A DNA stretch of 64,000 bases, from the NCBI GenBank assembly GCA_964363635.1, contig CAYIIU010000002.1:768-64767 (forward strand), given 5' to 3'. The position numbers and the translations under genes were made by a program. The notes under the pieces are model-generated. The model had not been told where the DNA came from, ran no database searches, and saw nothing but the letters and a program-made list of their open reading frames with translations. This DNA comes from an uncultured archaeon (GTDB taxonomy: Archaea > Iainarchaeota > Iainarchaeia > Iainarchaeales > VGJJ01). Below are positions 8,365 through 63,989 of this stretch, piece by piece. Every line of letters begins with the position of its first letter. Position 1 is the stretch's first letter.

Positions 8365-8365
8365 A

Positions 8366-41663: not shown

Positions 41664-41930
41664 GATAGTTACCCGAAACAAATGAGGGGTGAGACGGAGA
41701 ACCATATTGAACGGAGCGCGCGTCTAGTTAATCGTGCGTCCGACGGTTTTGAACCTTGAATGGAAAAATTTCTAGGAAACCAAATAATTACTACATAAGG
41801 CGGTTTTCTCTATTCTTTAAACCCTTCCGGGGGCGTTCGACGTATGGCTTCTACGTTGGCAGGGCAATCCCTTTCTCCGCTGGGGTGGGGGGTTCTACGC
41901 ACTCAAACGCTGTTCGAGGGGTGCTGGCCT

Positions 41931-43143: not shown

Positions 43144-44745
43144 TCACTCTACCATGACGGAAGTCATCATTTCTGAGGAAAGGTGCTCTGCAATGTGGCA
43201 GTGGAGCATCCATTCTCCCGGGTTGGTGAATTCTACGAGCAATTCTACTTCTTCTCCTTGTGGAATTAAGACCGTGTCTTTCCAAACCAAGTGCTGATTT
43301 GTTTTCCCATTTTGGGTTAATACGAGAAATCTGTTTCCGTGTAAGTGAATGGGGTGTTGCATGGGGTGAGAGGATTCGGACAAATTTTTGATACGAATTT
43401 TTTTGATGTCTCCTTTTTTTACGTTCCAATTAAAATCCATGTTTTCTTTTTTTGTTTTTTCGTCTCGAATAATCCATGTGACTTCTTCATTTGTGGTAAT
43501 GGCATTTACTCCTTCCATTTCGTCTTCCCATTCGATCGTGCTTTGTTCCGTGTGCCCCATTCCTTGTTTCATTTCCATTCCGCCGTGCTGCATATTTTTC
43601 ATCATTGTATCCATGACCGGCCAACGAATCGTTAATTCGTATGTTTGGGCAACGGGATCATCAAAATATTCCCTATATTGTTCAATGTCAGCCTGAGCTT
43701 CAAGATTTGCCTCGAGATTCAGCGTTTGATTTTCGCCGCTATTTTCCTTTATTTGGAATTTTGCCAATATTGTTTTGGCAACCGGTGTATCATTTGTCAA
43801 CATATACTCTCCTGGATTTTGGAATACCACATCAATAATAGCTCTTTCCGATGGTGCCAAAATAATTTCGTTTGTTAAAAATGGTTGGCCGAATTTTCCA
43901 ACATCTGCACCAACAGATTTTATTTTAGCACCCGAAATGGTTAATCGGTAGGGGCGAACATTGCTTGTGTTCAACAAGTATAGTCTATTTATCGTATTTG
44001 CGTTCAGGGATAAGGAATAATCCGTTTTTCCATTTACTAGAAACGTGTTGCCGAATCGGCCCATTACTGCAAAATTGGTTTCCTTTTCTGGAAAGGGGGC
44101 AATTTGATTATTTTCCATGCGAATATCATCAATCACGAGAACGTTTTCAGTGTAGACGGGCTCGCCTTCTGCTGACGAAACGAGGATGGCCCCATATAAC
44201 CCCAGTTCCTGCTGCATGTCTTCCCGCACATGAGGGTGGTACCAAAATAATCCTTCATCGGGAAAATCGAGCGTGTACGTGAAGGATTCTCCCGGCAAAA
44301 CTTCTTCCTGTGTGACCCCGGGGACACCGTCGTTTTTATTTTCCAATCGGAGACCATGCCAGTGAACGGTGGTAGGTTTGTCAATGTTGTTCGTGAATTG
44401 GACCGTTATTCGGTCTCCTTTTTTTACTTTGATGAGGGGCCCGGGAATTTGTTGGTTATACGCATAACCGTAAACCGTTTTTCCGCCAATTTCATATTGC
44501 ACGATTTCCGCACTCAAGGCAAATGTGGAACCGGTTTCCAGTTTGGCCTCTCTTGCCGGGAGAAGTTCAACGTATTTTCCAGGCAAATATACGTCCCCAA
44601 CGTTATATCCTGGATAAGGGTCATTGGATTGATTGACAATCGGTGTTTGGTTATTGAGAAAAAAGAATGCAGCGATTCCAATCAGCAATACTCCTGCCAG
44701 AATTATCGGCCATTGGCTTGGTAGTGTTTTCAATTCGTGCTTCAT
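43144..44745 (-). CDS. Multicopper oxidase (CopA/CueO-like)
   Basis: Copper-ligand motifs are TVHWHGLRL, WYHPHV, HPIHLHG and HCHIAEHLSSEMM. An N-terminal TM or signal segment is present. Confidence 0.9.
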   Translation of the reverse strand: MKHELKTLPSQWPIILAGVLLIGIAAFFFLNNQTPIVNQSNDPYPGYNVGDVYLPGKYVELLPAREAKLETGSTFALSAEIVQYEIGGKTVYGYAYNQQIPGPLIKVKKGDRITVQFTNNIDKPTTVHWHGLRLENKNDGVPGVTQEEVLPGESFTYTLDFPDEGLFWYHPHVREDMQQELGLYGAILVSSAEGEPVYTENVLVIDDIRMENNQIAPFPEKETNFAVMGRFGNTFLVNGKTDYSLSLNANTINRLYLLNTSNVRPYRLTISGAKIKSVGADVGKFGQPFLTNEIILAPSERAIIDVVFQNPGEYMLTNDTPVAKTILAKFQIKENSGENQTLNLEANLEAQADIEQYREYFDDPVAQTYELTIRWPVMDTMMKNMQHGGMEMKQGMGHTEQSTIEWEDEMEGVNAITTNEEVTWIIRDEKTKKENMDFNWNVKKGDIKKIRIKNLSESSHPMQHPIHLHGNRFLVLTQNGKTNQHLVWKDTVLIPQGEEVELLVEFTNPGEWMLHCHIAEHLSSEMMTSVMVE

Positions 44746-45173
44746 TTCACCACCTCAATCGTCCCTTTAAACATTTTCATCGAGCAATGAAAAGGAAATT
44801 TTCCTGATTTATCGGGAGTAAACTCGATGAGAGTTTCTCCTTGCGCGGGTGCTAGTTTTCGAACCTTGTATTCGGGAAAAATTATTTCATGACCGCACGC
44901 GGCACCCGCGTCGACTGAAAAGTGAATCCGAACCGGAATTCCTTTCTTTACCGTCAAAAAGTTTGGTTCGTATGTTCCAAATTCGGTTGCTTTGAGAAAA
45001 ACATCCTGCTTGCCATCTACAATAGGAGGAAGGGATAAAACGCCGTTGGAAGAAGGGGTTGTTTTTTCGGTCGTTTTTCCCGTTGGAGTAGCTGTTGCAC
45101 TTATCATTAAGAATATCCCAATAATGATGGCAATTCCCATTCCGATTACGATTTGTTTTTGGTCCATCCGCAT
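44742..45173 (-). CDS. Cupredoxin-like domain protein
   Basis: It has an N-terminal TM helix and the C-terminal FPFHCSMKMFKGTIEVV plus an upstream GAACGHE, a type-1 copper-like ligand pattern. A 4-nt overlap links it to the MCO gene. Confidence 0.75.
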   Translation of the reverse strand: MRMDQKQIVIGMGIAIIIGIFLMISATATPTGKTTEKTTPSSNGVLSLPPIVDGKQDVFLKATEFGTYEPNFLTVKKGIPVRIHFSVDAGAACGHEIIFPEYKVRKLAPAQGETLIEFTPDKSGKFPFHCSMKMFKGTIEVVK

Positions 45174-45180
45174 TCCTCCA

Positions 45181-45663
45181 TTATTTATTCACGTTATACT
45201 CGTTTACTTTCTTCGACTTGAAAAAACCAAGCGTTGGTAATCGGATACACTTTTTGGTCCATTGAAAATAAAAAAAGAGTAAAAACAATCCAATGGAAAC
45301 GATTCCTAAAAAAGGTCGCAAAGGTTCAATCGTTGAAAGGATGAAAGGGAAACCCAACGCGGCGACCAATAGATAATTACAGATGGGGCATGCAAAGGAT
45401 ATGAATCCAGCAACCGAAGCAACGCCAATCGGAAGATTTGTTTTAGGTTGGTTTGAAAAAGATAGGTAAAACGCTAGTAACCCGCTTATGATTACTAAAA
45501 ACGCATAATCAAGCAGGGTAGCCGGAACCATTCTCACATACTGAATAATGGGATTGGGTATGAGCGCTGTCGGAGTTCCAAATAATAAGACAAGTCCAAT
45601 CCAAAGCGCAAAAAAAACAAGGAACGGCTTCATTTTTTCCAATAAAAAAGGAGTTGATTTCAT
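45181..45663 (-). CDS. Polytopic membrane protein with an intramembrane CxxC
   Basis: About 5 TM helices. It contains FACPICNYLLVAALGFPF and is a distant paralog of 46276..46731 (VAQCPACASLGALFLPL). Confidence 0.6.
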   Translation of the reverse strand: MKSTPFLLEKMKPFLVFFALWIGLVLLFGTPTALIPNPIIQYVRMVPATLLDYAFLVIISGLLAFYLSFSNQPKTNLPIGVASVAGFISFACPICNYLLVAALGFPFILSTIEPLRPFLGIVSIGLFLLFFYFQWTKKCIRLPTLGFFKSKKVNEYNVNK

Positions 45664-46283
45664 GCAGACTCTTCTATAGTTTCGAGTCGAATCGTGTATT
45701 TGTCTCCCTCACGGATAACTCGGTTTTCAAATTCCGTGTTTTCTTTTCCGTTCACTAAAAAGACCATTTTGGTTAATGTTTCTCCATTTGCACACGTGTC
45801 TCCAATCTTTTTTCCATTAAATTCATTGGCATTGAAAGTCGTTCCAAGTCGTTGAATAAACTTTCCCAACGTAATCTGTTCAGGGGTGGCCGCTGCACCC
45901 TCGACATGAATTCGCTGATCATCATGCGTGTGTAGGAGGTGGTCAACGATGGGGGCATTGGGAATAATGTACGGTTGGCCGCACACGCTGGCTTCTAAGT
46001 CCGCGTGCCAATGCACGTTTCCGGTTGGAAACTGCATTCCTTCAATATTGAGCAATGTTTTAGGAGTATTGCCATTTGCATTTAGAATTCCGCTGGCAAG
46101 CACGGCAACACCGAGACCCAGAATCAAAACGATAAGGATAGGAATTTTCCATTTCGTTAAAATGGGGTTAGGTTGTCTTTCCGCGGGCATTGTTTCCGGG
46201 TGCTTGGCCTTCCGATGCATGGAAAGCGCGTCCGCGTTGGAGAATGATTTTTGGCACTTGTCACAGCTGTTTTCTTCACTCAT
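45660..46283 (-). CDS. C2H2 zinc-finger - TM - extracytoplasmic HWHA-domain protein
   Basis: CDKCQKSFSNADALSMHRKAKH fits C-x2-C-x12-H-x4-H. It is followed by the TM helix IPILIVLILGLGVAVLASGIL and the domain VHWHADLEASVCGQPY...HTHDDQRIHVEG, which is shared with 48548..49459. Confidence 0.65.
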   Translation of the reverse strand: MSEENSCDKCQKSFSNADALSMHRKAKHPETMPAERQPNPILTKWKIPILIVLILGLGVAVLASGILNANGNTPKTLLNIEGMQFPTGNVHWHADLEASVCGQPYIIPNAPIVDHLLHTHDDQRIHVEGAAATPEQITLGKFIQRLGTTFNANEFNGKKIGDTCANGETLTKMVFLVNGKENTEFENRVIREGDKYTIRLETIEESA

Positions 46284-46731
46284 TTTTGAATGCTCCCAAA
46301 TAGTTCAACGTGAAAACGAGCAAGACGATGCTGGCAAGTGTAATGTATGTTCCATAGGTGGCTAAGAAATTTATTGCGGATAGAGGGAGGAATAATGCGC
46401 CTAAGGATGCGCATGCCGGACATTGAGCGACTAAAAAAGTTCCCATGGTTCCAAATCCAGTGGTTCCCGTTCCAACCATTCGTTCATTGGTTGAACATGT
46501 ACCTGGTTTTTTCCATAAACTGATTTGATACGATAACGTGACTCCGAATAATAGTGAAAAGAGCATGGTTAATGCTAAATTTAGTGGAGGAACCGATGCA
46601 AACCACACTCCCAAATTTTCTATAATCCCCAATACTTGAGTATAGGTATAGAGAGCAAACATGGTCAGACTAGCGAGGAGGGCGATTCCCGCGTAACGCG
46701 GATGGGCGAGTACGCGGAATAATCTAACCAT
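46276..46731 (-). CDS. Polytopic membrane protein with an intramembrane CxxC
   Basis: About 4-5 TM helices with FLVAQCPACASLGALFLPL. Confidence 0.6.
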   Translation of the reverse strand: MVRLFRVLAHPRYAGIALLASLTMFALYTYTQVLGIIENLGVWFASVPPLNLALTMLFSLLFGVTLSYQISLWKKPGTCSTNERMVGTGTTGFGTMGTFLVAQCPACASLGALFLPLSAINFLATYGTYITLASIVLLVFTLNYLGAFKNE

Positions 46732-46749
46732 GTTTTACTCCCTAAAGCA

Positions 46750-47562
46750 TCATTCGAGCGACTGGATGGCCTGTTGAAATACCGTGTACGGTTGGGCTCC
46801 CACGATGAGTTTTCCAGTTCCATCGGCTTTTCCTAGGAAAAACCCGGGTGTTCCCGTTATTCCAACGCTGCCGCCTTCACTGAAGTTGGCCTGAATTTCA
46901 TTGGAGTATTTGTTATCGCCCACGCACTGGTCGAACGTTGTCGAGTTGAGACCAATTTCGGCACCCCATTTCTTGATGTCCGTTGCCGTGTAATCTTGGA
47001 CGGTTCCTTGTCCTTTCTTGTCTTGTTCGACAAAGATTTTGTCGTGCATTTCCCAATATTTTCCTTGGTCGCTCGCGCAGCGTGCCGCGTTTGCGTAAGG
47101 GATAGCCATCGGATGAAAACTAAGCGGGAAGTCCTTGTAGACCAGTTTTACTTTTCCAGTATCAATGTAATCCTTTTGTAAATTTCCTTTTACATCGTTA
47201 AACCATTTCCTACAAAAGGGACACTGATAATCTGAATATTCTACGAGAACAATTGGCGCATCCGATTTTCCAAGTGTTGCGGCCGCATTTTTGACTAACT
47301 CACTCATTTGAGCGGTTGGTGCGGGTGCGGATGGCGGATTTAAATTGCCAGATGGAGCCGTTGGAAGATTGTTTCCCCCCGTGTTTCCTCCGCCTTGAAT
47401 GCTTAAACCATTTAGCCCAGTAGTGAGCGCGCTCGCGGCAGTTATCATTGAATACCCTACAACCACGGCGGCCAGGAGGATGCTCATGGATAGAATTATT
47501 TCAGGTGATATCGTGTTTTCCTTTTTGTGATGAATGGGTGCTAATCCCTCATGTTCAGTCAT
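46750..47562 (-). CDS. DsbA-family thiol:disulfide oxidoreductase (membrane-anchored)
   Basis: The thioredoxin active site is YSDYQCPFCRKW. There is an N-terminal TM helix and a C-terminal GTPGFFLG. Confidence 0.85.
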   Translation of the reverse strand: MTEHEGLAPIHHKKENTISPEIILSMSILLAAVVVGYSMITAASALTTGLNGLSIQGGGNTGGNNLPTAPSGNLNPPSAPAPTAQMSELVKNAAATLGKSDAPIVLVEYSDYQCPFCRKWFNDVKGNLQKDYIDTGKVKLVYKDFPLSFHPMAIPYANAARCASDQGKYWEMHDKIFVEQDKKGQGTVQDYTATDIKKWGAEIGLNSTTFDQCVGDNKYSNEIQANFSEGGSVGITGTPGFFLGKADGTGKLIVGAQPYTVFQQAIQSLE

Positions 47563-50869: not shown

Positions 50870-51148
50870 GTGACCATTTCAAAACAATTAATGTATTGGC
50901 TGATTGCCAGCTCGAAAGGAGGATTAAACCGAACCAGAATCATTTTAGCCCTGAAAGAAAAACCAATGAATCTCCATCAACTCGCCGAAAAAATGAATGT
51001 GCACTATACCACGATACAACATCACGTGGAATTGTTGGTCAAGCACGGTTTTCTGGTAGGGACAGGCGGAGAATATGGAAAAGCGTATTTTTTATCACAA
51101 GACTTAGAGGATGCTTATCATGAATTCAAAAAAATCACTAACCAATAA
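50870..51148 (+). CDS. ArsR-family winged-helix regulator
   Basis: RTRIILALKEKPMNLHQLAEKMNVHYTTIQHHVELLVKHGFLV. Confidence 0.7.
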   Translation: MTISKQLMYWLIASSKGGLNRTRIILALKEKPMNLHQLAEKMNVHYTTIQHHVELLVKHGFLVGTGGEYGKAYFLSQDLEDAYHEFKKITNQ

Positions 51149-51551
51149 GAATGAAACAACAAGTGGAAACGCGGCCTTTCAAGCGCTTGCGATAGCCGTT
51201 TTACTTGGCCTCGCCATTTTCTGGGCATCCATCTTTCTCGGATTTAACAAGCCTCATTTGTGGCTCATGCACCAACAATACATCCTCATCGAAATAATCA
51301 TCTCAAGCATCAATACCATTTTACTCGTTTATTTGCTGTCCAATTATTTAGAAATATATTCAACGGCTAAAACAAATTTTACCATTGGACTAATCATCCT
51401 AGCCGCAGGATTGCTCGCCCATTCGATTACAGCCAATCCCCTCTTTTACATGCACTTAGGTTACATGCCAATGAGCGGACCCTTCATGTTCGTCCCCTCC
51501 ATTTTCACGTTTATCGCAGTAATGGCCCTCACCTATCTCACCAAACAATGA
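51111..51551 (+). CDS. Four-TM hypothetical membrane protein
   Basis: 146 aa with four hydrophobic helices. It overlaps the end of the arsR-like gene. Confidence 0.5.
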   Translation: MLIMNSKKSLTNKNETTSGNAAFQALAIAVLLGLAIFWASIFLGFNKPHLWLMHQQYILIEIIISSINTILLVYLLSNYLEIYSTAKTNFTIGLIILAAGLLAHSITANPLFYMHLGYMPMSGPFMFVPSIFTFIAVMALTYLTKQ

Positions 51552-51565
51552 ACCGTAACTCTTTT

Positions 51566-51597
51566 TCGGATTAATTTCGGACATACCTCGGAAAAAA
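51566..51597 (+). promoter_or_regulatory. TTCGGA-N-TCGG motif copy b
   Basis: TCGGATTAATTTCGGACATACCTCGGAAAAAA is followed by CTAATTAAAAC. Confidence 0.45.
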
Positions 51598-51639
51598 CTA
51601 ATTAAAACAATCAACAACACGTTGTCGAGGTGATTTGAA

Positions 51640-51753
51640 ATGAAAATTATTCAAGTGATTCGAGCTGGAGGGTTGGAAGACCCCCATGAATATTTGAAAT
51701 ACGTCAATCGCAAAGTCAGATTGGAACGCACTTCCCGATCTGGTTTAGCGTAG
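51640..51753 (+). CDS. Possible 37-aa small protein (not in the ORF track)
   Basis: My translation is MKIIQVIRAGGLEDPHEYLKYVNRKVRLERTSRSGLA. It is preceded by GAGGTGAT 5 nt upstream and by a TAATTAAAAC box. Confidence 0.25.
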   Translation: MKIIQVIRAGGLEDPHEYLKYVNRKVRLERTSRSGLA

Positions 51754-51762
51754 GAGAAAAAA

Positions 51763-51960
51763 ATGGACATGAAACCTGAAAAAATAATTCTATGGTCGCT
51801 AGTGGTCATTGCCATTCTCGCATTAACTTACTTTGTAGACAGTCGATTTTCCTATTTACTTTTCACATTCGCCATGTTCGTAGGATGTATGGGCATGCAT
51901 GGGAGCCATTCTCATGAGAAAACGACTCAAATAGAAAAAGAAAATCAACACCAACACTAA
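51763..51960 (+). CDS. Small membrane protein with a His-rich tail
   Basis: Two TM helices, then CMGMHGSHSHEKTTQIEKENQHQH. Confidence 0.5.
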   Translation: MDMKPEKIILWSLVVIAILALTYFVDSRFSYLLFTFAMFVGCMGMHGSHSHEKTTQIEKENQHQH

Positions 51961-51970
51961 AAAAATTGGT

Positions 51971-51994
51971 GAATTTCGGATTGTTTTCGGAAAA
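51971..51994 (+). promoter_or_regulatory. TTCGGA-N-TTCGG motif copy c
   Basis: GAATTTCGGATTGTTTTCGGAAAA is followed by CTCTTTAAACC. Confidence 0.45.
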
Positions 51995-52092
51995 TGCTCT
52001 TTAAACCAAAAAAAGAAAGGAGTATTTTACCAAAAAGGGAGGTGGTTTATATGAGAAAAGAAAAAAGAAAAACAGGAGGTGAACCGTGGAAA

Positions 52093-52335
52093 ATGAAACC
52101 GTGGGTTCCACTTGGGATAATCGGATTGCTCGCGATTGCAGCTACTTTCGCGTACGCTCAAACTCCAGGGTCCGACAACTCAACGGATTGGACAACCATG
52201 CACGCCTACATGCAAAAGGCCATGAACAGCCCGCAAGAAATGCAAAAAATGATGGAAGCATGCGAAAATGAAATGGGCGACCATTCGAACCAATCCAATG
52301 ACAAAACCCCCAACAATCACATGGGAATGATGTAG
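52093..52335 (+). CDS. Secreted Met/His-rich small protein (putative metal-binding)
   Basis: The start is chosen after AGGAGGTGA. The signal peptide is MKPWVPLGIIGLLAIAATFAYAQ, and the mature part is rich in Met and His (MHAYMQKAM..QEMQKMMEACENEMGDH..NNHMGMM). Confidence 0.55.
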   Translation: MKPWVPLGIIGLLAIAATFAYAQTPGSDNSTDWTTMHAYMQKAMNSPQEMQKMMEACENEMGDHSNQSNDKTPNNHMGMM

Positions 52336-53168: not shown

Positions 53169-53224
53169 TGGCAAAGCCAATCACCTCAACTAAACGCACT
53201 GTTGTCAGGCGGTTAATATATGTT

Positions 53225-53267
53225 TTGTCCGATTTGTCTGGATTTTTCGGACAAAAACCATATAAGC
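53225..53267 (+). promoter_or_regulatory. Inverted repeat plus TATA-like box upstream of the VirB2-like gene (motif copy d)
   Basis: TTGTCCGA-N14-TCGGACAA (53225-53255) contains ...GGATTTTTCGGACAAAAA and is followed by CCATATAAGC. A second box, TTAATATATG, lies at 53213-53222. Confidence 0.45.
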
Positions 53268-53315
53268 AACCTCCAAAGGGTGTGAATTAGAGAAACTTAT
53301 TGGGAGGAAAAAAAG

Positions 53316-53615
53316 ATGAAGAAAAATCTAGGAATAATGTTAGCAGTATTGTTGCTCGGTTCGTTTGTGGCTGCGCAAACACCAGGGAATATTACCACCA
53401 TTACGGAGCCCATCAATCGAATCTATGATTTAGTCAAAGCTGTCGTATCCATTTTGGGAATCATCGCCATTACTATCGCTGGAGCCCACTATATGTTTTC
53501 GGGAAGCAATATTCAGACCCGTGAAAACGCCAAATCGATGGCATCGTATGCGGTCGTAGGATTAGTGCTGGTATGGGTTGCCCCGTTAGTTGTAACCTAT
53601 CTCACCGCCCCCTAG
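53316..53615 (+). CDS. TrbC/VirB2-like conjugative pilin candidate
   Basis: 99 aa. The signal peptide is MKKNLGIMLAVLLLGSFVAAQ, followed by two hydrophobic helices separated by a short polar loop (YMFSGSNIQTRENAKS). It is the first gene of the T4SS-like cluster. Confidence 0.6.
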   Translation: MKKNLGIMLAVLLLGSFVAAQTPGNITTITEPINRIYDLVKAVVSILGIIAITIAGAHYMFSGSNIQTRENAKSMASYAVVGLVLVWVAPLVVTYLTAP

Positions 53616-53619
53616 GGAG

Positions 53620-54660
53620 ATGATCCGGTCTATGAAAAAACTCTACGAAATCCTACTCCCACTCTTCATTACCGGACTTCTCTTCGTCACGCCCAGCGTA
53701 CACGCCCAAGGAGGTGGAAGCGGTGGTGGAGTCATCAACATTAACATCGATGTACAGGGAATTATCAATGCGATCAATGGTCTCGGCTTCGGATTAGGCG
53801 GAACACTCGGAAATATTCCAAGTCAAGTGCTGGGTATTTTTGGGAACGCATTCAAAGGTTCATTAATCTCATTCAACGATCCGCTCATGCAATTCTCCCA
53901 AACATTACTTACATCCAACCCCGACCCAAACGGACTTTATCCATGGTGGCAATCGACCATCTTAGTCATTTCATCGTTCTATCTCTTGCTCTTCCTTGTG
54001 ATTGGATTCATGTTTCTCTTTTCGTCCATCAATCCCGAGAAACGAATGGAAGCGAAAGAGTGGCTCAAGAATGCCTTCGTGATGATTGTTCTCGTCAATT
54101 TGTCCTTCGTATTGTATTCGTTAATCTTGGAATTAGCGACTGCCATTACCCAATTCATGTGGATTAGCGGTTTCCAAAACTTTTTCGACCCACAAGTATT
54201 TTCCAACATGGGCGCCGGAATGTTGCTGACATACGGTTTAGCGGTTTTACTTACTGCCGTAACATTATTCCTTCGACACATTTTCCTTCTCATTGGAGTC
54301 GTTCTCTTTCCCATCGCCATTTTCCTCTACTTTGTTCCTCCACTAAAAGTTTGGGGCCGAATGATATTCAACCTCATCGGCATCGCACTATTCACACAAT
54401 TTATTGACGTAGTCATTTTTGTTGCGAGCAATCAAGCCATGATTCAATTTGCAGGAAACGCGGGCGCAAATAGTGTTCCCGCTCTCGCATTCATTCTCAT
54501 CTTCATTGTGAATGTTCTTCTCATGGTTTACGCCGTGCTGAAATCTGTTTTCAGTATGACTGAAAATTCTAAAGTGTTAGGATATGCGGTTGGCGTCATG
54601 TCCGGGCAAATTAGTACGGCACTATCTGGCCTAAAGTTGGGCGCGGGGAGCGCGAAGTAG
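53620..54660 (+). CDS. VirB6/TrbL/CedA-like polytopic membrane protein
   Basis: 346 aa with a signal-like N-terminus, a Gly-rich exposed segment (QGGGSGGGVININ...), and about 6-7 TM helices. Confidence 0.55.
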   Translation: MIRSMKKLYEILLPLFITGLLFVTPSVHAQGGGSGGGVININIDVQGIINAINGLGFGLGGTLGNIPSQVLGIFGNAFKGSLISFNDPLMQFSQTLLTSNPDPNGLYPWWQSTILVISSFYLLLFLVIGFMFLFSSINPEKRMEAKEWLKNAFVMIVLVNLSFVLYSLILELATAITQFMWISGFQNFFDPQVFSNMGAGMLLTYGLAVLLTAVTLFLRHIFLLIGVVLFPIAIFLYFVPPLKVWGRMIFNLIGIALFTQFIDVVIFVASNQAMIQFAGNAGANSVPALAFILIFIVNVLLMVYAVLKSVFSMTENSKVLGYAVGVMSGQISTALSGLKLGAGSAK

Positions 54661-54673
54661 TTGGAGGCGTCCT

Positions 54674-55528
54674 ATGTCGTATGAAATCCCCAAAAACATT
54701 CGTTACCAAGAAAAAGTCGTCTTCAACCTCAGCTTCGAACAATCATTCTGGGTGGCCCTTTTTGGCATCCTAACCTTCACCGTATTCTTCAAACTTCCCC
54801 TTATTTTTGAAGTCCGAATAGCCATCAGCATCTTTTTCGTTATTCTCGCGGTAGGATTTGCCTTTTTTGATTTTCGCACCCGCGCAACCAATTTGTATGC
54901 TTTCATCTCAACCCCACGAGAAATGGGTTATATGGACCCTAAAATGGCCAAATTTTTAGAAATAAATAGAATCGAAAATGACACGGTTTACTTGAATAAT
55001 GGTAGCCTAAAATCCCTCATTCACGTCCAACCCATCAATTTCCACATCCTATCCGTGCGACAAAAGCAAGCCATTATCGCGGCGTACAAAGACTTCCTCA
55101 ACAGCCTAGACTTTCCCATCCAAATCGTCATGCGAACCGTGAGCCTAAACCTAGACGATTACCTCAAGCAACTCGAACTAAAGGTTCGAAAGCAGAAAAA
55201 ACCTCACTTAATCAACCAGTTCGTAGACTTTGAAGCCTTCATGCGAAAATACATCGAAGAAAACAGCGTCAAAAATAGACTATTTTACATCGTCATCCCT
55301 TACACTTCAAGCAAAAATCCCCTTGAAGCCAAAACGAATCCACTCGAACAATTAGAAATTCGCGTGAAACTCTGCCAAGAAAAACTAAAACATTGCAACC
55401 TCATAACGAAAAGACTCTCCACCAACGAACTGACTTCCCTATTAGCATCATACTTTGAAGGATTCATCGAAGCAGAAAACGAATACCAAAAGACACTCGT
55501 TGTTTTACAAAAGGAGGTAGCCAAATGA
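54674..55528 (+). CDS. PrgI/VirB3-like membrane protein with an extended C-terminal domain
   Basis: MSYEIPKNIRYQEKVVFNLSFEQSFWVALFG matches the PrgI-family N-terminus (..P..I....K.v.gLt..Q). Two TM helices follow. A 4-nt overlap links it to the VirB4-like gene. Confidence 0.6.
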   Translation: MSYEIPKNIRYQEKVVFNLSFEQSFWVALFGILTFTVFFKLPLIFEVRIAISIFFVILAVGFAFFDFRTRATNLYAFISTPREMGYMDPKMAKFLEINRIENDTVYLNNGSLKSLIHVQPINFHILSVRQKQAIIAAYKDFLNSLDFPIQIVMRTVSLNLDDYLKQLELKVRKQKKPHLINQFVDFEAFMRKYIEENSVKNRLFYIVIPYTSSKNPLEAKTNPLEQLEIRVKLCQEKLKHCNLITKRLSTNELTSLLASYFEGFIEAENEYQKTLVVLQKEVAK

Positions 55529-57774
55529 AGAACTTAGTTGAGTTGCTAAAACCGTCGTACATTCATAATCAAGCCGATTCTATTCAAGTGAATGAACAAT
55601 TTAACCGTATCATTATGGCTGTAGGCTATCCTCGTGCGATTCGAGAAGGATGGTTAGATTCAATCATTGCGAGTGAGGGAAACTTTGATCTAAGCCTGCA
55701 CATTACTCCCTCAAATGTTGAATCCATTTTAACACAGCTCAATCAAGAGTTAGTCAAGCAAGAAGCCGATTTGATGGGTGCTCAAATGAAGGGAATTGTG
55801 AACCCTTCACTACGATTACAACACCAAGACACGCTGAATGTTTTAGAAAAACTCCAAAAAGGAGAAGAAAAGTTATTCAATCTGTCTCTTTACCTCAATG
55901 CACGAGCCTACACGAAAGACAAGCTCGAATTGCTTACACGAAAAGTTATCACTGAACTCAATTCGATTCTCATTATCCCCAAAATGCCTTTTTTGCGAAT
56001 GTATGATGGACTCAAATCCATTTTTCCCATTCAAGAAGACAAACTAAAAATCACGCGAAACATTCCGAGCGATGCTTTAAGCGCTTGTTTCCCTTTCACT
56101 ACCGCCTTCCTCAATCTGGACAGCGAGGGAATCCTATTCGGGCTAAATAAATCTAACAACATCCCCATTATTCTTGACCCGTACCGTTTTGCCAACTACA
56201 ACGGACTCATTTTAGGAACGTCCGGCAGCGGAAAAAGCGTTACCGCCAAACTATTCATCCTCCGAAACCTATTACGAGGCGTAAAAACAATGATTATTGA
56301 CCCGCAAGGAGAATACGTCGAACTAACCCAAAAATACAATGGTCAAGTCGTCGAAATTTCTCGAGAAAGTGAAACCATCATCAATCCTTTTGATTTAATG
56401 GATCAAGATTTGGGAGAAAAAATGCTCTCCCTAATGGATTTATTCAAAATCATGTGCGGGGACCTCACGGAAGTCCAAAAAAATATTTTAGATAAAGCTA
56501 TGCAGAAAGTGTACGAACAAAAAGGAATCATTTACAACAATCCCGAAACGTGGAACAAAACTCCTCCAATTATGGAAGACTTGTATACCGAGCTTTTGCG
56601 TGAGAAAAAAACAGCCACGAAACAAGAACGAATGACATACGAAGCGTTAGAGAATCGTATCCGCATCTATGCCAAAGGAACGTTTTCATTCATCAACAAG
56701 CAGACAAACCTCGATTTGTCTAATGATTTAATTTGCTTCAACATCGCCCAAATGCCCAACCAAATCAAACCAGTCATGATGTACCTCGTCATGGACTTTG
56801 TTCACAAAAAAATGCAAAAAGACCGAGAGAGAAAAGCGCTCATCATCGACGAAGCATGGACACTTTTACGCTTCGCCGAACACTCCAAACACATTTTCGA
56901 ATTAATTAAAACCGCCCGAAAATTTGGATTAGGAATACTCATCCTCACTCAAGAAGTAGGGGACTTGATTTCGAGCGAAGCGGGAAAAACAATTCTTGCG
57001 AACACCAGCTGGAAGTTTTTAGCGAGACAAGAACCAACCGTCATCGAAGAATTAAGTCAAAAATTCAACCTCAACAGCGAAGAACAAAACTATTTACTGA
57101 CAGCTATGCCTGGAGAAGGATTACTGTTTGCGATGAACGACCACATCCCCCTCAAAGTGGTTCCCTCCCCAAGCGAATACGAACTTATCACCACGAATCC
57201 GGATGAAGTAAAAGCTCGCGAGTTAAAATTCAAAAAGTTAGGTGAGAAAGAGCCGGAGAATATGCATCCATACCAGAAAGAAAAGAAATATTATTTGAAA
57301 AAAGAACTTACGATTGATCAAATAGAGTTTCTCAAGCAAAACGACTACCATGAAATACGATTATGCGGGTTGGACAATTTTTCGCAATGGTATTTAGTCA
57401 AAAAACCAGACTCTAGCGAAAGTTTGGAACACCAATTCATGGTACAAATTATCGCAGATGAAATTCTAAAGCACACGCAAGAAATCAGCATATATGCTAG
57501 CACGGGACCCGACATTCTCGTATGGGTCCCCAAAAAAGATAATCCTGATTTTGGCGAGTCCATTGCTATCGAAATCGAAACAGGTACCCAACTCAAAACA
57601 CCTGGAGATTTAGCGAATAAGGTCGCTCAAAATAACTTCCAAAAATACAAGGAATGGTGGTTTGTCGTAACGAACAAGGATGACAAGAAAGAATACGAAA
57701 AATACCACCAAACCATGACTCGAACAGAGATTAAGCCTTTTTTGGAGCGATTATTTAATGGTAAACCAACATAG
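55525..57774 (+). CDS. VirB4/TraE/CedB-class conjugation ATPase with a C-terminal PD-(D/E)xK-like domain
   Basis: Walker A is LILGTSGSGKSVTAKL and Walker B is KALIIDEAWTLL. GLGILILTQEVGDL is also present. The C-terminal ~140 aa carry ESLEHQF...GPDILVWV...IAIEIETG. Confidence 0.85.
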   Translation: MKNLVELLKPSYIHNQADSIQVNEQFNRIIMAVGYPRAIREGWLDSIIASEGNFDLSLHITPSNVESILTQLNQELVKQEADLMGAQMKGIVNPSLRLQHQDTLNVLEKLQKGEEKLFNLSLYLNARAYTKDKLELLTRKVITELNSILIIPKMPFLRMYDGLKSIFPIQEDKLKITRNIPSDALSACFPFTTAFLNLDSEGILFGLNKSNNIPIILDPYRFANYNGLILGTSGSGKSVTAKLFILRNLLRGVKTMIIDPQGEYVELTQKYNGQVVEISRESETIINPFDLMDQDLGEKMLSLMDLFKIMCGDLTEVQKNILDKAMQKVYEQKGIIYNNPETWNKTPPIMEDLYTELLREKKTATKQERMTYEALENRIRIYAKGTFSFINKQTNLDLSNDLICFNIAQMPNQIKPVMMYLVMDFVHKKMQKDRERKALIIDEAWTLLRFAEHSKHIFELIKTARKFGLGILILTQEVGDLISSEAGKTILANTSWKFLARQEPTVIEELSQKFNLNSEEQNYLLTAMPGEGLLFAMNDHIPLKVVPSPSEYELITTNPDEVKARELKFKKLGEKEPENMHPYQKEKKYYLKKELTIDQIEFLKQNDYHEIRLCGLDNFSQWYLVKKPDSSESLEHQFMVQIIADEILKHTQEISIYASTGPDILVWVPKKDNPDFGESIAIEIETGTQLKTPGDLANKVAQNNFQKYKEWWFVVTNKDDKKEYEKYHQTMTRTEIKPFLERLFNGKPT

Positions 57775-57816: not shown

Positions 57817-58449
57817 ATGAGTTATTCGTTGCTAGTCCGAAAACTTCTCGGTCGAGAAAATCGATACATCCCAGACGATGAATTAGCCGCATATTGCAAA
57901 TCGATTGGAATAACCTACACGAAGGCGGTCAATTACTTGGGAAAATACCATTACATTGACCGTATCCTTCGAGGATTCTTCTATATTCCAAGCATCGAAG
58001 AACGAAAACTAAAATCGGGTTTCCCAAACCCTTATGAAGCGATTGCCAAAGCAATGGAATATAAGAAAGTCAAAAACTGGTACTTCGGACTCGAAACGGG
58101 CATTAAACTCAATAACATTACTCATGAATCGTTTACTGTCGACTACGTGGTTTCCGACACAATTTTTCGTCCAAAACCAATTACTATCCTGGGTCGAAAA
58201 GTAAAGTTTGTCAAACTGAAAAAAAATCTCTTTAGCTTCGGCATCATTGAAAACGGAAGCTGGCGTTACTCCGATCTTGAAAAAAGCCTGCTCGACATCA
58301 TTCACATCCGAAAATATAACGGAAAAAGCGACAAAGCCATCATTGACGAGCTCATTGAATGGGGAGAACACGCGTCAAAGAAGAAGCTTAAAGAATATGC
58401 GAAACACTATCCACTATTTGTCCGCAAGGTCGCAGGTGAACTTAGATGA
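57817..58449 (+). CDS. AbiEi-like antitoxin / transcriptional regulator (type IV TA)
   Basis: 210 aa with a 4-nt overlap with the AbiEii-like gene. The N-terminal DDELAAYCKSIGITYTKAVNYLGKYHYIDRILRGFFYIP is wHTH-like. Confidence 0.55.
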   Translation: MSYSLLVRKLLGRENRYIPDDELAAYCKSIGITYTKAVNYLGKYHYIDRILRGFFYIPSIEERKLKSGFPNPYEAIAKAMEYKKVKNWYFGLETGIKLNNITHESFTVDYVVSDTIFRPKPITILGRKVKFVKLKKNLFSFGIIENGSWRYSDLEKSLLDIIHIRKYNGKSDKAIIDELIEWGEHASKKKLKEYAKHYPLFVRKVAGELR

Positions 58450-59474
58450 TTGAAAAAGGACTCATTGACTGGATATCTCGGGACAAGGGGATTGTGAACC
58501 GCGAATTAATCGAAAAAGACCTATTACTCCAAGGATTACTGGTTAGCCTTGCTAAATCCGATTATTTCAAGCGCAATTATGCATTCAAAGGGGGAACCTG
58601 TCTTACCAAAGCCTATTTCGGATACTATCGCTTTTCCGAAGATCTCGATTTTACCTGGATGCACCCCCAAATGTTCGAAAACCTTTCAGGAAAAGGCGTG
58701 AGAAAAAAATTAACCCAAGAAGTCAACCAAATACTAGCCCTACTAGAAACAAGTGCTAAAGAAGTAGGACTCGATTTCAAACCCGAAAAATCAAATGACC
58801 ATTATACTCAATTTGGAGGCGGAAAACGATTCGCCACCTTCAAATGCTGGTACAAATCAACGACTACTGAAAGCGAATCGTTCATCAAAATCCAAATCAA
58901 TTTTGTTGAATTGCTCATATATTCCCCAAAAATAATGGATATAAAACCACTTTACTCTCGGGGATCCCGAGAATTGGAAGTATTATATCCCGATAATAGC
59001 GGCTTAGCAACTCGCCGCGCCGAATTATTTGTATATGACATACGAGAAATAGCAGCTGAAAAAATTCGGGCCATACTCACCCGAAAAGGGATCAAAGCAC
59101 GCGATTATATCGATTTATACATCCTTGACCAAAAGCAGACCCCTATTTCGAGTGTTTTAGAAGCTGCCATGAAAAAGACCCTCTTTATGCTCGACTACGA
59201 AAAATATGCTCAAAACCTTTTTGAAAAGAAATTCGACCAAAAAACAGAATTAGGAAAGGAAGAAAATCTCCTGATAAACCCAGTCGAAAAAGGCTTTCCA
59301 ATCTATACTGAAAAAGCCCAAAAAATACTCGCCAACGCGGCGGAAACCCTGCGAAATGAATACACGAAAACTAAATCATGGAGCGAACTAACCAAACCAT
59401 TGAAAAGAGCCAAAAAGAAAGTACGAGAAGAAGATGTCGTGGATTTAGTTCATCGAATAAGAAAAGAAAAATGA
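58446..59474 (+). CDS. AbiEii/AbiGii-family nucleotidyltransferase toxin
   Basis: YAFKGGTCLTKAYFGYYRFSEDLDFTW is the GG...(S/T)EDLDF NTase core, and a downstream KIRAILTRKGIKARDYIDLY is present. Confidence 0.8.
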   Translation: MIEKGLIDWISRDKGIVNRELIEKDLLLQGLLVSLAKSDYFKRNYAFKGGTCLTKAYFGYYRFSEDLDFTWMHPQMFENLSGKGVRKKLTQEVNQILALLETSAKEVGLDFKPEKSNDHYTQFGGGKRFATFKCWYKSTTTESESFIKIQINFVELLIYSPKIMDIKPLYSRGSRELEVLYPDNSGLATRRAELFVYDIREIAAEKIRAILTRKGIKARDYIDLYILDQKQTPISSVLEAAMKKTLFMLDYEKYAQNLFEKKFDQKTELGKEENLLINPVEKGFPIYTEKAQKILANAAETLRNEYTKTKSWSELTKPLKRAKKKVREEDVVDLVHRIRKEK

Positions 59475-62475: not shown

Positions 62476-63087
62476 TTAATGATTGTTAATCATCCATGGC
62501 TTCAGTTTCGATTGTTCCACCTGTTTGATTTGAACATCAATGGTTCGTCGCATCTCGCGTAACGTAAATTCATCCAAAACCGTTTGGTGACTCTTCTTCG
62601 AAATAAGCCGTTTTTGTCCACCATCTACTTCTACGAGATAGAGTTCTTCGCTCAAGCTGGACGAGTGATTAACCAGTTTACTGATGAGCTCTCTCCCACG
62701 TTTCAGGCGTGCGGAAAGCTGTTGAAAATGGTTTCGATAGGCTGCCTCAGGGTTTTCAGCGAAATAGCTTACGGGCGCGAGGTTCGTTTTCTTGATTAAG
62801 CCCACTTTTAGGAGGTCGTTGAGCACGATGTAGGTGCTGGATCGGGCTATCCCCGCCTCTTTTACGATAATGTCAACGGGGAGGGGCTCTATGTGCCATA
62901 ATAGGCGGTATATTCGGGCGTGATTGCGCGAGAACTCAGGGAAAAAATGTCGAAATAAACTCCACAATTCTTCGGTATTTTCGAGTGTACCCAAGGCAGA
63001 CCTCCCATGTCTGCATAACCAACTAGAATCGGAACAATATAAACATAACGTTGAAAAGAAAACAACTGATTGGTTGAAATTTGGCAA
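62476..63087 (-). CDS. TrmB-family transcriptional regulator (start probably downstream of the track ATG)
   Basis: HARIYRLLWHIEPLPVDIIVKEAGIARSSTYIVLNDLLKVGLIKK is the TrmB N-terminal wHTH pattern. Confidence 0.65.
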   Translation of the reverse strand: MPNFNQSVVFFSTLCLYCSDSSWLCRHGRSALGTLENTEELWSLFRHFFPEFSRNHARIYRLLWHIEPLPVDIIVKEAGIARSSTYIVLNDLLKVGLIKKTNLAPVSYFAENPEAAYRNHFQQLSARLKRGRELISKLVNHSSSLSEELYLVEVDGGQKRLISKKSHQTVLDEFTLREMRRTIDVQIKQVEQSKLKPWMINNH

Positions 63088-63140: not shown

Positions 63141-63989
63141 ATGAATGAATCGCATGAGGAATTACTTTCAATAATTGAGCAGGGAGCTGTCGAGTATTAT
63201 TCAAAATATATTTCGCCAGATACGAAAAATCTGCAAAAGATTTCATTGGACCCTGCCGAATCAAATTATTTCCTGCTAAAGAATTTCTTCTATCGGGGCC
63301 GGTCGGATGAGCTTTCGTATCGCTACGAAAAAATCTGCCTTGAGAAGTTGCGGGAATTTTTTGGGAAAGATTTTTCCAAGTGGATACGTACGCCAAACTG
63401 GGACAATCTCAAAATGGAACTTGAAAAACCAACCCGTTTAACAAAGGAGCAATTCGTTGAAAAATGGGGAAAAAATTATTTTGATATCTTTGGAAAACCC
63501 TTCGCAATAAAAAAAGAAAAAATGGGAATTGATGTAGAATCCGATCGAAAAATGATTTTATCTTTTCTGAAATTTGTCCATAAAAATACTGAAAAATTTG
63601 ATTTTAATGCTATGTTATGGTTACAAAACCAGATTGAGAAAGGAAAAATTATTGAGACCTATGATTTTCTGAAGGAAGAAATTTTCAATGTCGGCGATAA
63701 ATTAGCAGCACTTGGCATACGCGAAACAATGTCATTGTATAATATGGATATTGAAACATATGACGATGAAGTGGCTGAAAAACTATTGCCAATCGATACA
63801 CAAGTAAGAAAAACACTCGGTCCCATGGGGCTCAAGTGGGTCGAAAAAGATGACGATGTTAATCAAATAAGGAGAAAGATTATCCAATTGTGCAAAAACA
63901 AAATGTCTCCTATACGATTCGACCAGGGATTATGGTATCTCGCAAAATTTCATCCCGAAAAAATACCTAAACTGGGAGATAACAAATGA
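63141..63989 (+). CDS. Hypothetical protein
   Basis: 282-aa ORF with coding-like composition and no confident motif. Confidence 0.45.
   Translation: MNESHEELLSIIEQGAVEYYSKYISPDTKNLQKISLDPAESNYFLLKNFFYRGRSDELSYRYEKICLEKLREFFGKDFSKWIRTPNWDNLKMELEKPTRLTKEQFVEKWGKNYFDIFGKPFAIKKEKMGIDVESDRKMILSFLKFVHKNTEKFDFNAMLWLQNQIEKGKIIETYDFLKEEIFNVGDKLAALGIRETMSLYNMDIETYDDEVAEKLLPIDTQVRKTLGPMGLKWVEKDDDVNQIRRKIIQLCKNKMSPIRFDQGLWYLAKFHPEKIPKLGDNK

Follow-up and report, generated by a model that had tools for sequence, protein, structure and literature searches.

A minimal monoderm-type type IV secretion module with a nuclease-like domain on its VirB4 ATPase, predicted in Iainarchaeota and other DPANN archaea

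A 64,000-nucleotide stretch of the genome of an uncultured archaeon (assembly GCA_964363635.1, contig CAYIIU010000002.1, positions 768 to 64,767 of the forward strand; this whole stretch is called the window here, and unlabeled coordinates are positions within it) carries four consecutive open reading frames (ORFs) at 53316-57774. Profile matches show that they encode a minimal monoderm-type type IV secretion system (T4SS), that is, a mating-pair-formation (MPF) apparatus, in a DPANN archaeon. The parts are a VirB2/TrbC-type pilin, a probable VirB6, and a VirB3-VirB4 motor split over two genes, the second of which ends in a domain with a predicted PD-(D/E)xK nuclease fold. The survey of related loci supports the view that a large family of genomic islands specific to DPANN archaea is built around this module as its invariant core and that many of these islands are or were integrative mobile elements. 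The best explanation, to which we assign a rough probability of 55%, is a pilus-based DNA translocator of mobile-element origin. The features of the module are as follows.

53213-53307, plus strand: putative promoter/operator and ribosome-binding site, read from the sequence by eye
53316-53615, plus strand: ORF1, VirB2/TrbC-type T4SS pilin, 99 aa (Pfam T4SS_pilin and TrbC; conserved position)
53620-54660, plus strand: ORF2, probable VirB6/TrbL-like polytopic membrane protein, 346 aa (precomputed PF19590; AlphaFold2 [AF2] model; conserved position)
54674-55528, plus strand: ORF3, 284 aa, PrgI/VirB3-like hairpin (residues ~5-67) and TrsD/TraC-like VirB4 N-terminal domain (residues ~100-270)
55525-57201, plus strand: VirB4-family ATPase core, ORF4 residues 1-559 (NCBIfam CD1110 VirB4; Walker motifs)
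57202-57774, plus strand: winged-helix-like subdomain and predicted PD-(D/E)xK core, ORF4 residues 560-749 (AF2 and Foldseek; conservation)

A preliminary description of this DNA, made without database searches, had reported four tightly packed, co-directional genes, and an ORF check verified all of them at these coordinates, with ORF4 running as a whole from 55525 to 57774 (749 aa). ORF1 and ORF2 are separated by 4 nt and ORF2 and ORF3 by 13 nt. The start of ORF4 overlaps the stop of ORF3 by 4 nt (ATGA), which implies translational coupling of these two genes, and the four together look like one operon. Inspection of the sequence upstream of ORF1 found a TATA-like TTAATATA at 53213-53220 and ATATAAG at 53260-53266, a 7-bp palindrome (TGTCCGA/TCGGACA, at 53226-53232 and 53247-53253), and a Shine-Dalgarno sequence, GGGAGG, at 53302-53307, 8 nt 5' of the ORF1 ATG. 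These signals are the putative promoter/operator of the operon. The GC content drops from ~0.45-0.49 to ~0.40 across the island.

ORF1 is assigned as a VirB2/TrbC-type pilin, as had been proposed from its architecture. It exceeds the Pfam cut-offs for both T4SS_pilin (E value of 1.2e-14, 54.5 bits against a cut-off of 26.6) and TrbC (2.1e-9, 37.9 bits against 27.9), it consists of a signal peptide followed by two hydrophobic helices, and a pilin is found at the equivalent position in 59-66 related loci. ORF2 is the probable VirB6 and the weakest assignment among the four proteins; we make it because the position of this protein between the pilin and VirB3 is invariant, a protein of this type being found there in 66-75 loci. 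Its AF2 model (predicted local distance difference test score [pLDDT] of 78.8) has an N-terminal signal or transmembrane segment, a disordered Gly-rich linker, and a bundle of long helices. Precomputed annotation places PF19590 (TrbL_3) on ORF2 itself and on 31 of 37 homologs. The two Pfam sources disagree on this protein: our own hmmscan of ORF2 and 52 family members never returned PF19590 and instead found a T4SS_pilin-like two-helix hairpin in 24/52. A profile of the ORF2 family had no match among PDB sequences. When the model was searched with Foldseek, the best natural membrane-protein match was R388 TrwI/VirB6, at a level that was not significant (E of 0.4-0.9, TM score of 0.29-0.35), and TrwI/VirB6 chains ranked 8th, 11th, 16th, and 30th in the list. 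The earlier label for ORF2, VirB6/TrbL/CedA-like, is retained as probable in its VirB6/TrbL part; ORF2 matched no Ced model at E <= 1.

ORF3 and the core of ORF4 are one VirB3-VirB4 protein divided between two translationally coupled genes. This assignment is made because the two proteins consecutively cover NCBIfam VirB4_plasma, a model of the Mycoplasma VirB3-VirB4 protein: ORF3 matches positions 3-286 of its 894 positions (8.4e-11), and ORF4 picks it up at positions 294-893. Relatives in which the protein is single confirm it. Fusions of ~980-1045 aa occur, for example, in homologs P0008 (79% identical) and P0109-P0120 (~1030 aa), and the PrgI, TrsD, and VirB4 parts are fused in nearly all woesearchaeotal, pacearchaeotal, and nanoarchaeotal loci, while the Iainarchaeota loci L012, L015, and L019 are split with an equal 4-nt overlap. 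Within ORF3, residues 5-67 match Pfam PrgI (4e-8, 34.1 bits against a cut-off of 27) and residues 102-261 match TrsD weakly (2.1e-5, 24.5 bits), a match that the ORF3 coverage of VirB4_plasma reinforces; the precomputed annotation is PF26593 (TraC-like). The PrgI/VirB3 identity, previously proposed from the N-terminus of the 284-aa protein, applies only to its first ~70 residues, the remainder being a TrsD/TraC-like N-terminal piece of VirB4.

By its profile matches, the core of ORF4 is a monoderm-type VirB4 ATPase. The strongest match was to the NCBIfam CD1110-family VirB4 model (8.7e-95, model positions 191-751), with a score of 318.6 bits that lies just below the 325-bit equivalog cut-off, followed by the VirB4 model of Mycoplasma integrative and conjugative elements (ICEs) (1.6e-82). 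Other matches were to TraC (2e-45), VirB4_CagE (3.9e-29), P-loop_TraG (2.2e-27), and AAA_10 (1.2e-16), with both of the Pfam models among them over their cut-offs, and to CedB (6.7e-15). The protein has a Walker A motif (GTSGSGKS) and a Walker B motif (IIDEAW), and G234, G236, K237, S238, D442, E443, A444, and W445 are invariant in the family alignment. A comparison with 72,556 plasmids gave CD1110-type VirB4 proteins of Firmicutes and Actinobacteria as the best relatives, at 27-30% identity. The VirB4-class ATPase recognized in the preliminary description is thus confirmed, although its C-terminal 190-aa domain had been overlooked. With the pilin, PrgI, and VirB4 models matched, profile searches did not assign the four proteins to unrelated families. 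One ORF4 homolog, P0091 (1251 aa), has LAGLIDADG/intein Pfam domains, which suggests that its ATPase holds an inserted intein.

The VirB4 models stop near ORF4 residue ~560 and leave 190 residues, for which structure prediction supports a restriction-endonuclease-like (PD-(D/E)xK) fold without a close relative. This domain was found in 105 of the 120 best ORF4 homologs, at 29-88% identity. Its AF2 model (pLDDT of 92.8, predicted TM score of 0.85) has a small subdomain, made of a helix and a hairpin, and after it an alpha-beta-beta-beta-alpha-beta core (helix 75-89; strands 95-97, 105-110, and 118-126; helix 134-146; strand 151-156). H636, D663, and E683 are invariant in the domain alignment, and E632, E685, T686, G687, and K699 are nearly so. 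The "PD" aspartate, D663, is at the start of the second strand and an E-x-E pair (E683, E685) lies within the third; E632, H636, D663, E683, E685, and K699 are candidate catalytic residues. The third catalytic position is normally K in PD-(D/E)xK folds. BamHI, with D94/E111/E113, has D...E-x-E instead of D...E-x-K. The best Foldseek matches in the PDB were the CRISPR ancillary nucleases Cdn1 and Can2 (E of ~1e-2, probability of 0.94-0.96), and further fold matches included BamHI, XPF/ERCC1, LlaBIII, McrC, VRR_NUC, and Avs4. Named matches in BFVD were mostly of restriction endonuclease, Mrr, RecB-family, VRR-NUC, and Holliday-junction-resolvase type (best E of 5.9e-4).

At the sequence level, the C-terminal domain had no match in Pfam (standalone homologs included) or among PDB sequences, and a word-indexed search for homologs gave four fragments and nothing more. 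When 1.84 billion representatives were searched exhaustively, the family came to 278 members. The top 149 members comprise 34 that are fused to VirB4, ~60 that are standalone proteins or fragments, and ~55 with other N-termini; these ~55 have unrelated N-terminal parts with transmembrane or coiled-coil regions. P0235 (342 aa) joins the domain to a thymidylate kinase. Of the 3458 plasmid records with a match to ORF4, none reaches 80% coverage of the protein and all lack the C-terminal domain, so the VirB4-nuclease fusion is absent from catalogued plasmids.

The host is an archaeon of the Iainarchaeota, which belong to the DPANN kingdom Nanobdellati. It is placed among the archaea because the window holds an RNaseP_arch RNA at 39321-39576; genes for leucyl-, alanyl-, and arginyl-tRNA synthetases (LeuRS, AlaRS, and ArgRS) lie upstream of the module, and the nearest relatives of the module are metagenome-assembled genomes (MAGs) of Candidatus Iainarchaeum/Diapherotrites, which bears out the DPANN-like host suspected earlier. 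The same gene junctions are present in an independent 13.4-kb ENA contig from the Hainich groundwater metagenome (L001) and in L002. These are the only exact-match contigs, and they extend 1.1 kb past the window, holding a PDDEXK_1 nuclease gene there and no integrase.

The module is widespread among DPANN archaea. ORF4 had 1431 homologs among the scored candidates, with named sources that were Diapherotrites, Iainarchaeum, Micrarchaeota, or simply "archaeon," and all of its close VirB4 homologs are archaeal. Searches with two peptide patterns in a 185,579-species collection (one genome per species) located the module at no fewer than 237 places, a lower bound, in these species representatives, which are Iain-, Woese-, Pace-, Nano-, and Micrarchaeota. 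Identity to ORF4 is 55-83% in Iainarchaeota relatives and 42-46% in Woese-, Pace-, and Nanoarchaeota. The neighborhood survey covered 82 non-redundant loci with 10-kb flanks. Across them, the order pilin, optional extra genes, VirB6, VirB3/TrsD, VirB4 is nearly invariant, and the four-gene order of the window thus recurs across DPANN phyla. Between pilin and VirB6, 21 loci have an extra gene for a protein of ~455-490 aa, and 13 have one for a protein of ~136 aa (examples are L005 6454-7926, L083 5801-7168, and L057 8053-8463). No significant Pfam match was obtained for either protein, and both may be additional components of the apparatus, such as an adhesin or analogues of VirB5 or VirB8.

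Signs of mobility are frequent in these neighborhoods. Clustering identified a tyrosine integrase in 24 loci, in 23 of which it shares the orientation of the module and precedes virB4 by a median of 5.8 kb, and a hidden Markov model (HMM) built from the clustered integrases found one in 28/82 loci. In L045, L061, and L065, the integrase is immediately preceded by a tRNA gene. This linkage to integrases points to a mobile-element origin. Other recurrent neighbors are an orphan N6_N4 DNA methylase (20 loci), TrmB (16-19 loci), PDDEXK_1 (9 loci), and Fic/DOC (8 loci), as well as the type I restriction-modification (R-M) genes HsdM/S/R, a C5 methylase, AsnC-type regulators, and DUF2779; ArdC-N/M78 (ArdC-N in L007), MmeI, GmrSD, HEPN/MNT, and a family B DNA polymerase with VRR_NUC were each seen in single loci. 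Eight MAGs hold two divergent copies of the module which, being only 54-79% identical, are not recent duplications. Most of the 80 loci listed are titled as DPANN lineages. A few module contigs (L017, L052, L069, L080, and P0034) are labeled Peregrinibacteria, Bdellovibrionales, Methanosarcinales, or Sphaerochaetaceae, which is likely to be mis-binning because the layout of L017 is the same as that of an archaeal contig, L010. In the closest species-representative genome, L008 (VirB4 83% identical), ~6 kb of foreign genes (4004-10000) lie between prgI/trsD and virB4; they are mostly unannotated and on the opposite strand, and one has a weak Peptidase_M64 motif.

Further parts of a conjugation system were not found. 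Pfam, NCBIfam, and PADLOC searches, which did not include dedicated MOB profiles, detected no relaxase, VirD4/TraG, VirB8-10, or hydrolase in the genes at ~40-65.1 kb, and the lack of these components reported in the preliminary description holds over that range. Likewise, precomputed Pfam annotation of eight related loci with their 10-kb flanks contained no relaxase and no T4SS-DNA_transf/TraG, no relaxase was present among ten recurrent unidentified neighbor clusters that were scanned, and neither PrgL (VirB8-like) nor a VirB1-like hydrolase gave a Pfam or NCBIfam match in the neighbors of the window module or of related loci. ORF4 is the only VirB4/FtsK-like ATPase in a six-frame translation of the window. 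The possibility had been raised that a relaxase, a type IV coupling protein (T4CP), and an integrase lie just outside the window, as in a typical ICE; no such set is present in the additional 1.1 kb gained through L001 or in the 10-kb flanks of the relatives examined. One candidate for a VirB11, a short 335-aa T2SSE/VirB11-PilB-type ATPase at 41844-42851 that adjoins a DUF192 gene, was set aside: it lies with housekeeping genes at a distance of ~11 kb, and relatives have no such gene beside the module.

The copy in the window appears to be long resident. Its closest relative is L088, a Logan contig in which VirB4 is 91% identical and the module is found at the equivalent place, with collinear DsbA-like, 151-aa, and zinc-finger genes (45.6-47.6 kb in the window) and ArsR/His-rich genes (50.8-52.4 kb). 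Amino acid identity to L088 is 82-88% for the flanking genes and 75-91% for the module genes, a similar divergence that implies long vertical inheritance. The ratio of nonsynonymous to synonymous substitution rates (omega) against L088 is 0.03 for ORF1, 0.10 for ORF2, 0.08 for ORF3, 0.012 for ORF4, and 0.011 for the nuclease-like domain, with synonymous sites saturated, and this indicates strong purifying selection rather than a decaying remnant. These comparisons support vertical inheritance of the window copy together with its flanks and its maintenance by strong purifying selection. The relationship with L089 is different. Its VirB4 core has 98.7% protein identity to that of the window (synonymous divergence [dS] of 0.9), but the C-terminal domain is only 61% identical (57202-57774 against L089 2344-2914), while the right arm of the island (TrmB, a 282-aa gene, and PDDEXK_1) is 95.5% identical in nucleotide sequence. 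This pattern suggests that the region is a recombination mosaic in which the nuclease-like domain has been exchanged as a unit.

A DNA-transfer module of mobile-element origin is favored because of the linked integrases, which are sometimes adjacent to tRNA genes, and the anti-restriction-type methylases and ArdC, together with the R-M and toxin-antitoxin (TA) cargo, the patchy spread, the divergent multiple copies, and the recombination mosaics. In characterized systems, VirB3 and VirB6 are the docking sites at the membrane for VirB4 hexamers, which power the extraction of pilin and the growth of the pilus (R388 structure, PMC9259494; review, PMC12857230). By analogy, ORF1 would be exported by Sec, processed, and polymerized into a pilus that contacts another cell. 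The PrgI hairpin of ORF3 would anchor the ORF3/ORF4 VirB4 hexamer to a platform formed by ORF2 (VirB6), and VirB4 would extract pilin from the membrane for pilus assembly. DNA would be the substrate, translocated through the pilus contact, and the fused nuclease-fold domains on the cytoplasmic face of the VirB4 hexamer would cut or nick it at the channel mouth, standing in for the missing relaxase and coupling ATPase. Transfer may be outward, as in conjugation, or inward, as in Ced/Ted; either direction is compatible with the in silico data. We tentatively extend this to a more specific proposal, which we hold to be possible rather than probable: the VirB4-fused PD-(D/E)xK domain may be the DNA-processing enzyme of a self-contained archaeal transfer motor, one polypeptide or a coupled pair, that anchors to the membrane, builds the pilus, cuts or nicks the DNA, and pumps it, taking the places of the separate bacterial VirB3, VirB4, coupling protein, and relaxase, with swapping of the domain between nearly identical motors setting the DNA that is recognized.

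Several observations weigh against the favored explanation. No tyrosine integrase was detected in the 64 kb at E <= 10 with the HMM from the 24 family-linked integrases. No convincing flanking direct (attachment [att]) repeats surround the window island; att repeats were also absent in five integrase-bearing loci, and neither an attR nor a repeated tRNA fragment was seen downstream in L045, L061, or L065. The module is carried by no circular or viral-classed contig and has no relative in IMG/VR. The co-divergence with the flanks and the lack of an integrase are as compatible with a domesticated cellular system as with a fossil element. In archaeal conjugative plasmids and thaumarchaeal ICEs, VirB4 is accompanied by VirD4 (PMC6563490, PMC12857230), and a set with VirB4 only looks more like the Ced/Ted import systems (PMC9905601) or the system of Patescibacteria. 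The VirB6 assignment of ORF2 depends on a precomputed Pfam match that our own scan did not reproduce. The nuclease fold matches are weak (best PDB E of 9e-3 with a TM score of ~0.4; best viral E of 5.9e-4), and the third catalytic position is E, not K. Finally, nuclease activity, pilus formation, and DNA transfer are all properties that we infer.

The closest described analogue, by its component list, is the T4SS of the Patescibacteria (also CPR), which has the same set of VirB2-like pilin(s), VirB6, PrgI/VirB3, TrsD, and an MPF_FATA-related VirB4, usually lacks a relaxase, and likewise belongs to ultrasmall episymbiotic hosts with reduced genomes (PMC12102498). In a December 2025 review, the pairing of VirB2 pilins with a monoderm T4SS in this group is presented as a unique exception (PMC12857230). 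The system is essential in Ca. Southlakia epibionticum and for epibiotic growth and is thought to have been co-opted for non-conjugative functions (PMC12102498, PMC12857230). The DPANN module differs in that it is archaeal, has one pilin gene rather than an array, carries a nuclease-like domain on VirB4, and has PrgI, TrsD, and VirB4 fused or coupled, whereas no VirB3-VirB4 fusions were reported in Patescibacteria (PMC12102498). The patescibacterial system is also near-universal and encoded near the replication origin, whereas the DPANN module is patchy and integrase-linked in 28/82 loci. Among the MPF_FATA systems (CTn2 CD1110-type; Mycoplasma ICE Mbov_0397 VirB3-VirB4), which supply the best VirB4 models, the best plasmid matches, and a PrgI-type VirB3, the Mycoplasma ICEs resemble the DPANN module in having neither VirB1 nor VirB8 (PMC12857230). 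However, ORF4 is only 27-30% identical and scores under the CD1110 cut-off, its C-terminal domain is uncovered in all 3458 plasmid records, and MPF_FATA systems, which have no VirB2 pilins, include a T4CP and a relaxase.

The archaeal Ced (Sulfolobales) and Ted (Thermoproteales) systems resemble the module in that each is reduced to a pilin, a channel, and an ATPase (VirB2-like, VirB6-like, and VirB4-like, respectively) and has neither a T4CP nor a relaxase, and the TedC pilin has a cleaved signal peptide (PMC9905601), as ORF1 appears to have. The likeness to Ted is one of architecture, taken from the published description (PMC9905601). By sequence the module is not a member of Ced: the matches to CedB (54.7 bits, cut-off of 700) and CedD (46.1 bits, cut-off of 600) are far too low, and ORF1 and ORF2 match no Ced model at the threshold given above. 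Ced and Ted also lack VirB3/PrgI, TrsD, and a fused nuclease, and they are chromosomal and regulated by DNA damage rather than integrase-linked. Archaeal conjugative plasmids and ICEs (the Sulfolobus pNOB8 family, Thermococcus pT33-3, and thaumarchaeal ICEs) resemble the module in having VirB4 and no recognizable relaxase, and the thaumarchaeal ICEs have tyrosine integrases and homologs of VirB6 and VirB3 as well (PMC12857230, PMC6563490); unlike the module, these plasmids and ICEs have VirD4/TraG as a second signature gene and no nuclease-fused VirB4. A VirB2-type pilin is not recognizable in them (PMC9905601). The HerA-NurA and FtsK/HerA pairs also combine a hexameric DNA-pumping ATPase of the same superfamily with a nuclease, which in ORF4 are covalently fused. 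However, the fold of NurA is RNase H-like rather than PD-(D/E)xK, HerA is a soluble protein of DNA end resection with no association with a pilin, VirB6, or VirB3, and the match of ORF4 to VirB4 models is much stronger than that to HerA models.

The preliminary description had read the four genes as a minimal, Gram-positive-style T4SS-like set of a DPANN-like archaeon with no relaxase, T4CP, or VirB8-10 nearby, and our results support that reading. It had also not recognized the four-gene core as one already described. This stands for DPANN archaea, since no published description of the DPANN module or of a nuclease-fused VirB4 was found in a search that left most subscription journals out, so that its absence is unproven; it does not stand for the component set, which a 2025 study reported in Patescibacteria (PMC12102498), so that the design has a precedent there and is new with respect to archaea.

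The most serious alternative, although we consider it unlikely, is a domesticated system for import of DNA or other nucleic acids along Ced/Ted lines, in which a pilus would contact a host or sister cell, VirB4 would pull DNA through VirB6, and the nuclease would process it for recombination or nucleotide salvage. DPANN archaea are usually unable to make nucleotides de novo, and the thymidylate kinase fusion of the nuclease-like domain in P0235 hints at salvage. An import function would also agree with the VirB2, VirB6, and VirB4 set without T4CP or relaxase (PMC9905601), with the missing integrase and the co-divergence with chromosomal flanks under purifying selection in the window copy, and with the proposal that the patescibacterial analogue imports macromolecules (PMC12102498; bioRxiv 10.64898/2026.06.21.733656). 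It accords less well with the low Ced scores, the patchy spread over the 185,579-species collection (at least 237 places), the two divergent copies in some genomes, and the integrases in about a third of loci, sometimes tRNA-adjacent. Orphan methylases and ArdC-N are typical of elements entering new hosts, and a swap of the nuclease domain between near-identical cores would be unexpected for a non-specific salvage nuclease. We regard as improbable an apparatus for interaction between the episymbiotic archaeon and its host cell in which the cargo would be proteins, lipids, or small molecules instead of DNA and the C-terminal domain would act in binding or regulation and not as an active nuclease. 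The patescibacterial T4SS with the same components is essential for epibiotic growth (PMC12102498, PMC12857230), Nanohaloarchaeota have VirB4-linked or VirB4-containing giant surface proteins proposed to secrete effectors (PMC10266531), no relaxase or T4CP was seen in the loci examined, and the E at the third catalytic position is atypical. Yet the acidic triad, the His, and the Lys are invariant or nearly so across sequences that are 29-88% identical, which argues for retained catalysis; the neighborhood is dominated by DNA functions (methylases, R-M, PD-(D/E)XK nucleases, and integrases), and no conserved effectors or adhesins adjoin the module, apart from the unannotated ~455-490-aa and ~136-aa proteins of some lineages.

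Three further explanations have very low probabilities. Under one, the operon would serve antiphage or antiplasmid defense through a HerA/FtsK-type ATPase with a fused nuclease, and the small membrane proteins would be accessories; AbiE, R-M, and Cas4-like nuclease genes are nearby, ORF4 bears a fused nuclease-fold domain, and it matches PADLOC mad8 (5.8e-22), DndH (3.6e-21), and HerA (3e-11). We rejected this reading since the PADLOC similarity is only of the generic HerA/DndH level, far below the VirB4 matches (8.7e-95 versus ~1e-22), ORF1 to ORF3 have no PADLOC match, and genes for a VirB2 pilin, a VirB6-like protein, and a VirB3 hairpin invariably precede the ATPase, which is often fused to VirB3. 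We give just as little credence to a decaying, non-functional ICE remnant that has lost its integrase, relaxase, and coupling protein. These three are indeed not found in the window, and the operon of L008 is interrupted by foreign genes, but the four ORFs are intact, with an omega of 0.01-0.10 despite saturated synonymous divergence, and the four-gene core without T4CP or relaxase is conserved over several DPANN phyla. Least credible of all is an assembly or binning artifact in which a fragment of a bacterial T4SS, for example from Patescibacteria or Firmicutes, was joined to archaeal sequence. The few homologous contigs with bacterial or Methanosarcinales bins and the Firmicutes origin of the closest characterized VirB4s could be read in this way. 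The identity to bacterial VirB4 is only 27-30%, however, most of the listed loci are titled as DPANN lineages, the junctions recur in L001 and L002, the window contains an archaeal RNase P RNA, and the flanking genes are collinear with L088; the concern raised earlier about a mis-joined bacterial contig is thus answered by synteny with another Iainarchaeota contig.

If the proposal for the nuclease domain is correct, the domain would be the first concrete candidate for DNA processing in relaxase-less archaeal transfer. No relaxase has been recognized in archaeal conjugation, for which the processing of DNA before transfer is an open question (PMC9905601, PMC6563490, PMC12857230). The module would also offer a route by which DPANN episymbionts exchange or acquire DNA, and it may serve exchange between DPANN archaea and their hosts or among DPANN archaea. 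DPANN archaea depend on other cells, and the machines at that interface are largely uncharacterized. As a widespread, conserved, and compact family of four or five genes, the module is a testable candidate for both questions, and biochemistry on the nuclease domain should be straightforward because it is small, predicted with high confidence, and has clear candidate catalytic residues. The finding extends the "pilus plus monoderm T4SS" design, so far deemed unique to Patescibacteria, to an archaeal counterpart radiation, and it raises the question of whether two radiations of ultrasmall symbionts have this machine in common by descent or by transfer.

The genes downstream of the module that could be named are listed here; several unannotated genes are also present.

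57817-58449, plus strand: AbiEi antitoxin (PADLOC AbiEi, 1e-53)
58446-59474, plus strand: AbiEii nucleotidyltransferase toxin (PADLOC, 3.2e-58; Pfam AbiEii, 1.4e-26)
62476-63087, minus strand: TrmB-family transcriptional regulator (Pfam TrmB, 8e-7), a recurrent backbone gene, 86% identical to the L089 copy
63141-63989, plus strand: conserved 282-aa protein of the right arm
63986 to ~65104 (L001 12328-13446), plus strand: PD-(D/E)XK/Cas4-like nuclease (PDDEXK_1, 1.3e-28; PADLOC Cas4-like, 5e-9)

The AbiE genes form a complete adjacent pair, of the type IV toxin-antitoxin or abortive infection kind, with a 4-nt overlap directly 3' of virB4. In the two closest relatives, L088 and L089, MazE/PIN takes this position, and the AbiE pair is variable cargo. 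In the nine loci with PDDEXK_1, this gene is found 3' of the module, often after the TrmB and 282-aa genes.

A copper/redox cluster (43144-47562 and 50870-52335) encodes a multicopper oxidase, a cupredoxin, a C2H2 zinc-finger protein, a DsbA-like thioredoxin, ArsR, and small His/Met-rich proteins. Such a cluster is linked to the module in varying orientation in L088, L015, and L019, with L088 adding a heavy-metal P-type ATPase; in L015 and L019 the copper/redox genes also adjoin the module, but inverted and on its other side. At the left end of the window are an IS200-like Y1 transposase (198-668) and two adjacent Fic/DOC-family genes (1302-3432), and the stretches that flank the latter (1198-1297 and 3517-3567) match L019 just upstream of its pilin gene. 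ARAGORN predicts a tRNA-Leu(GAG) at 37440-37526, a Rfam scan at gathering thresholds reporting only the other two tRNAs. Two adjacent minus-strand ORFs at 9351-11591 and 11691-13997 encode proteins of 746 and 768 aa with no Pfam match, and an 860-aa beta-propeller protein is encoded at 3926-6508.

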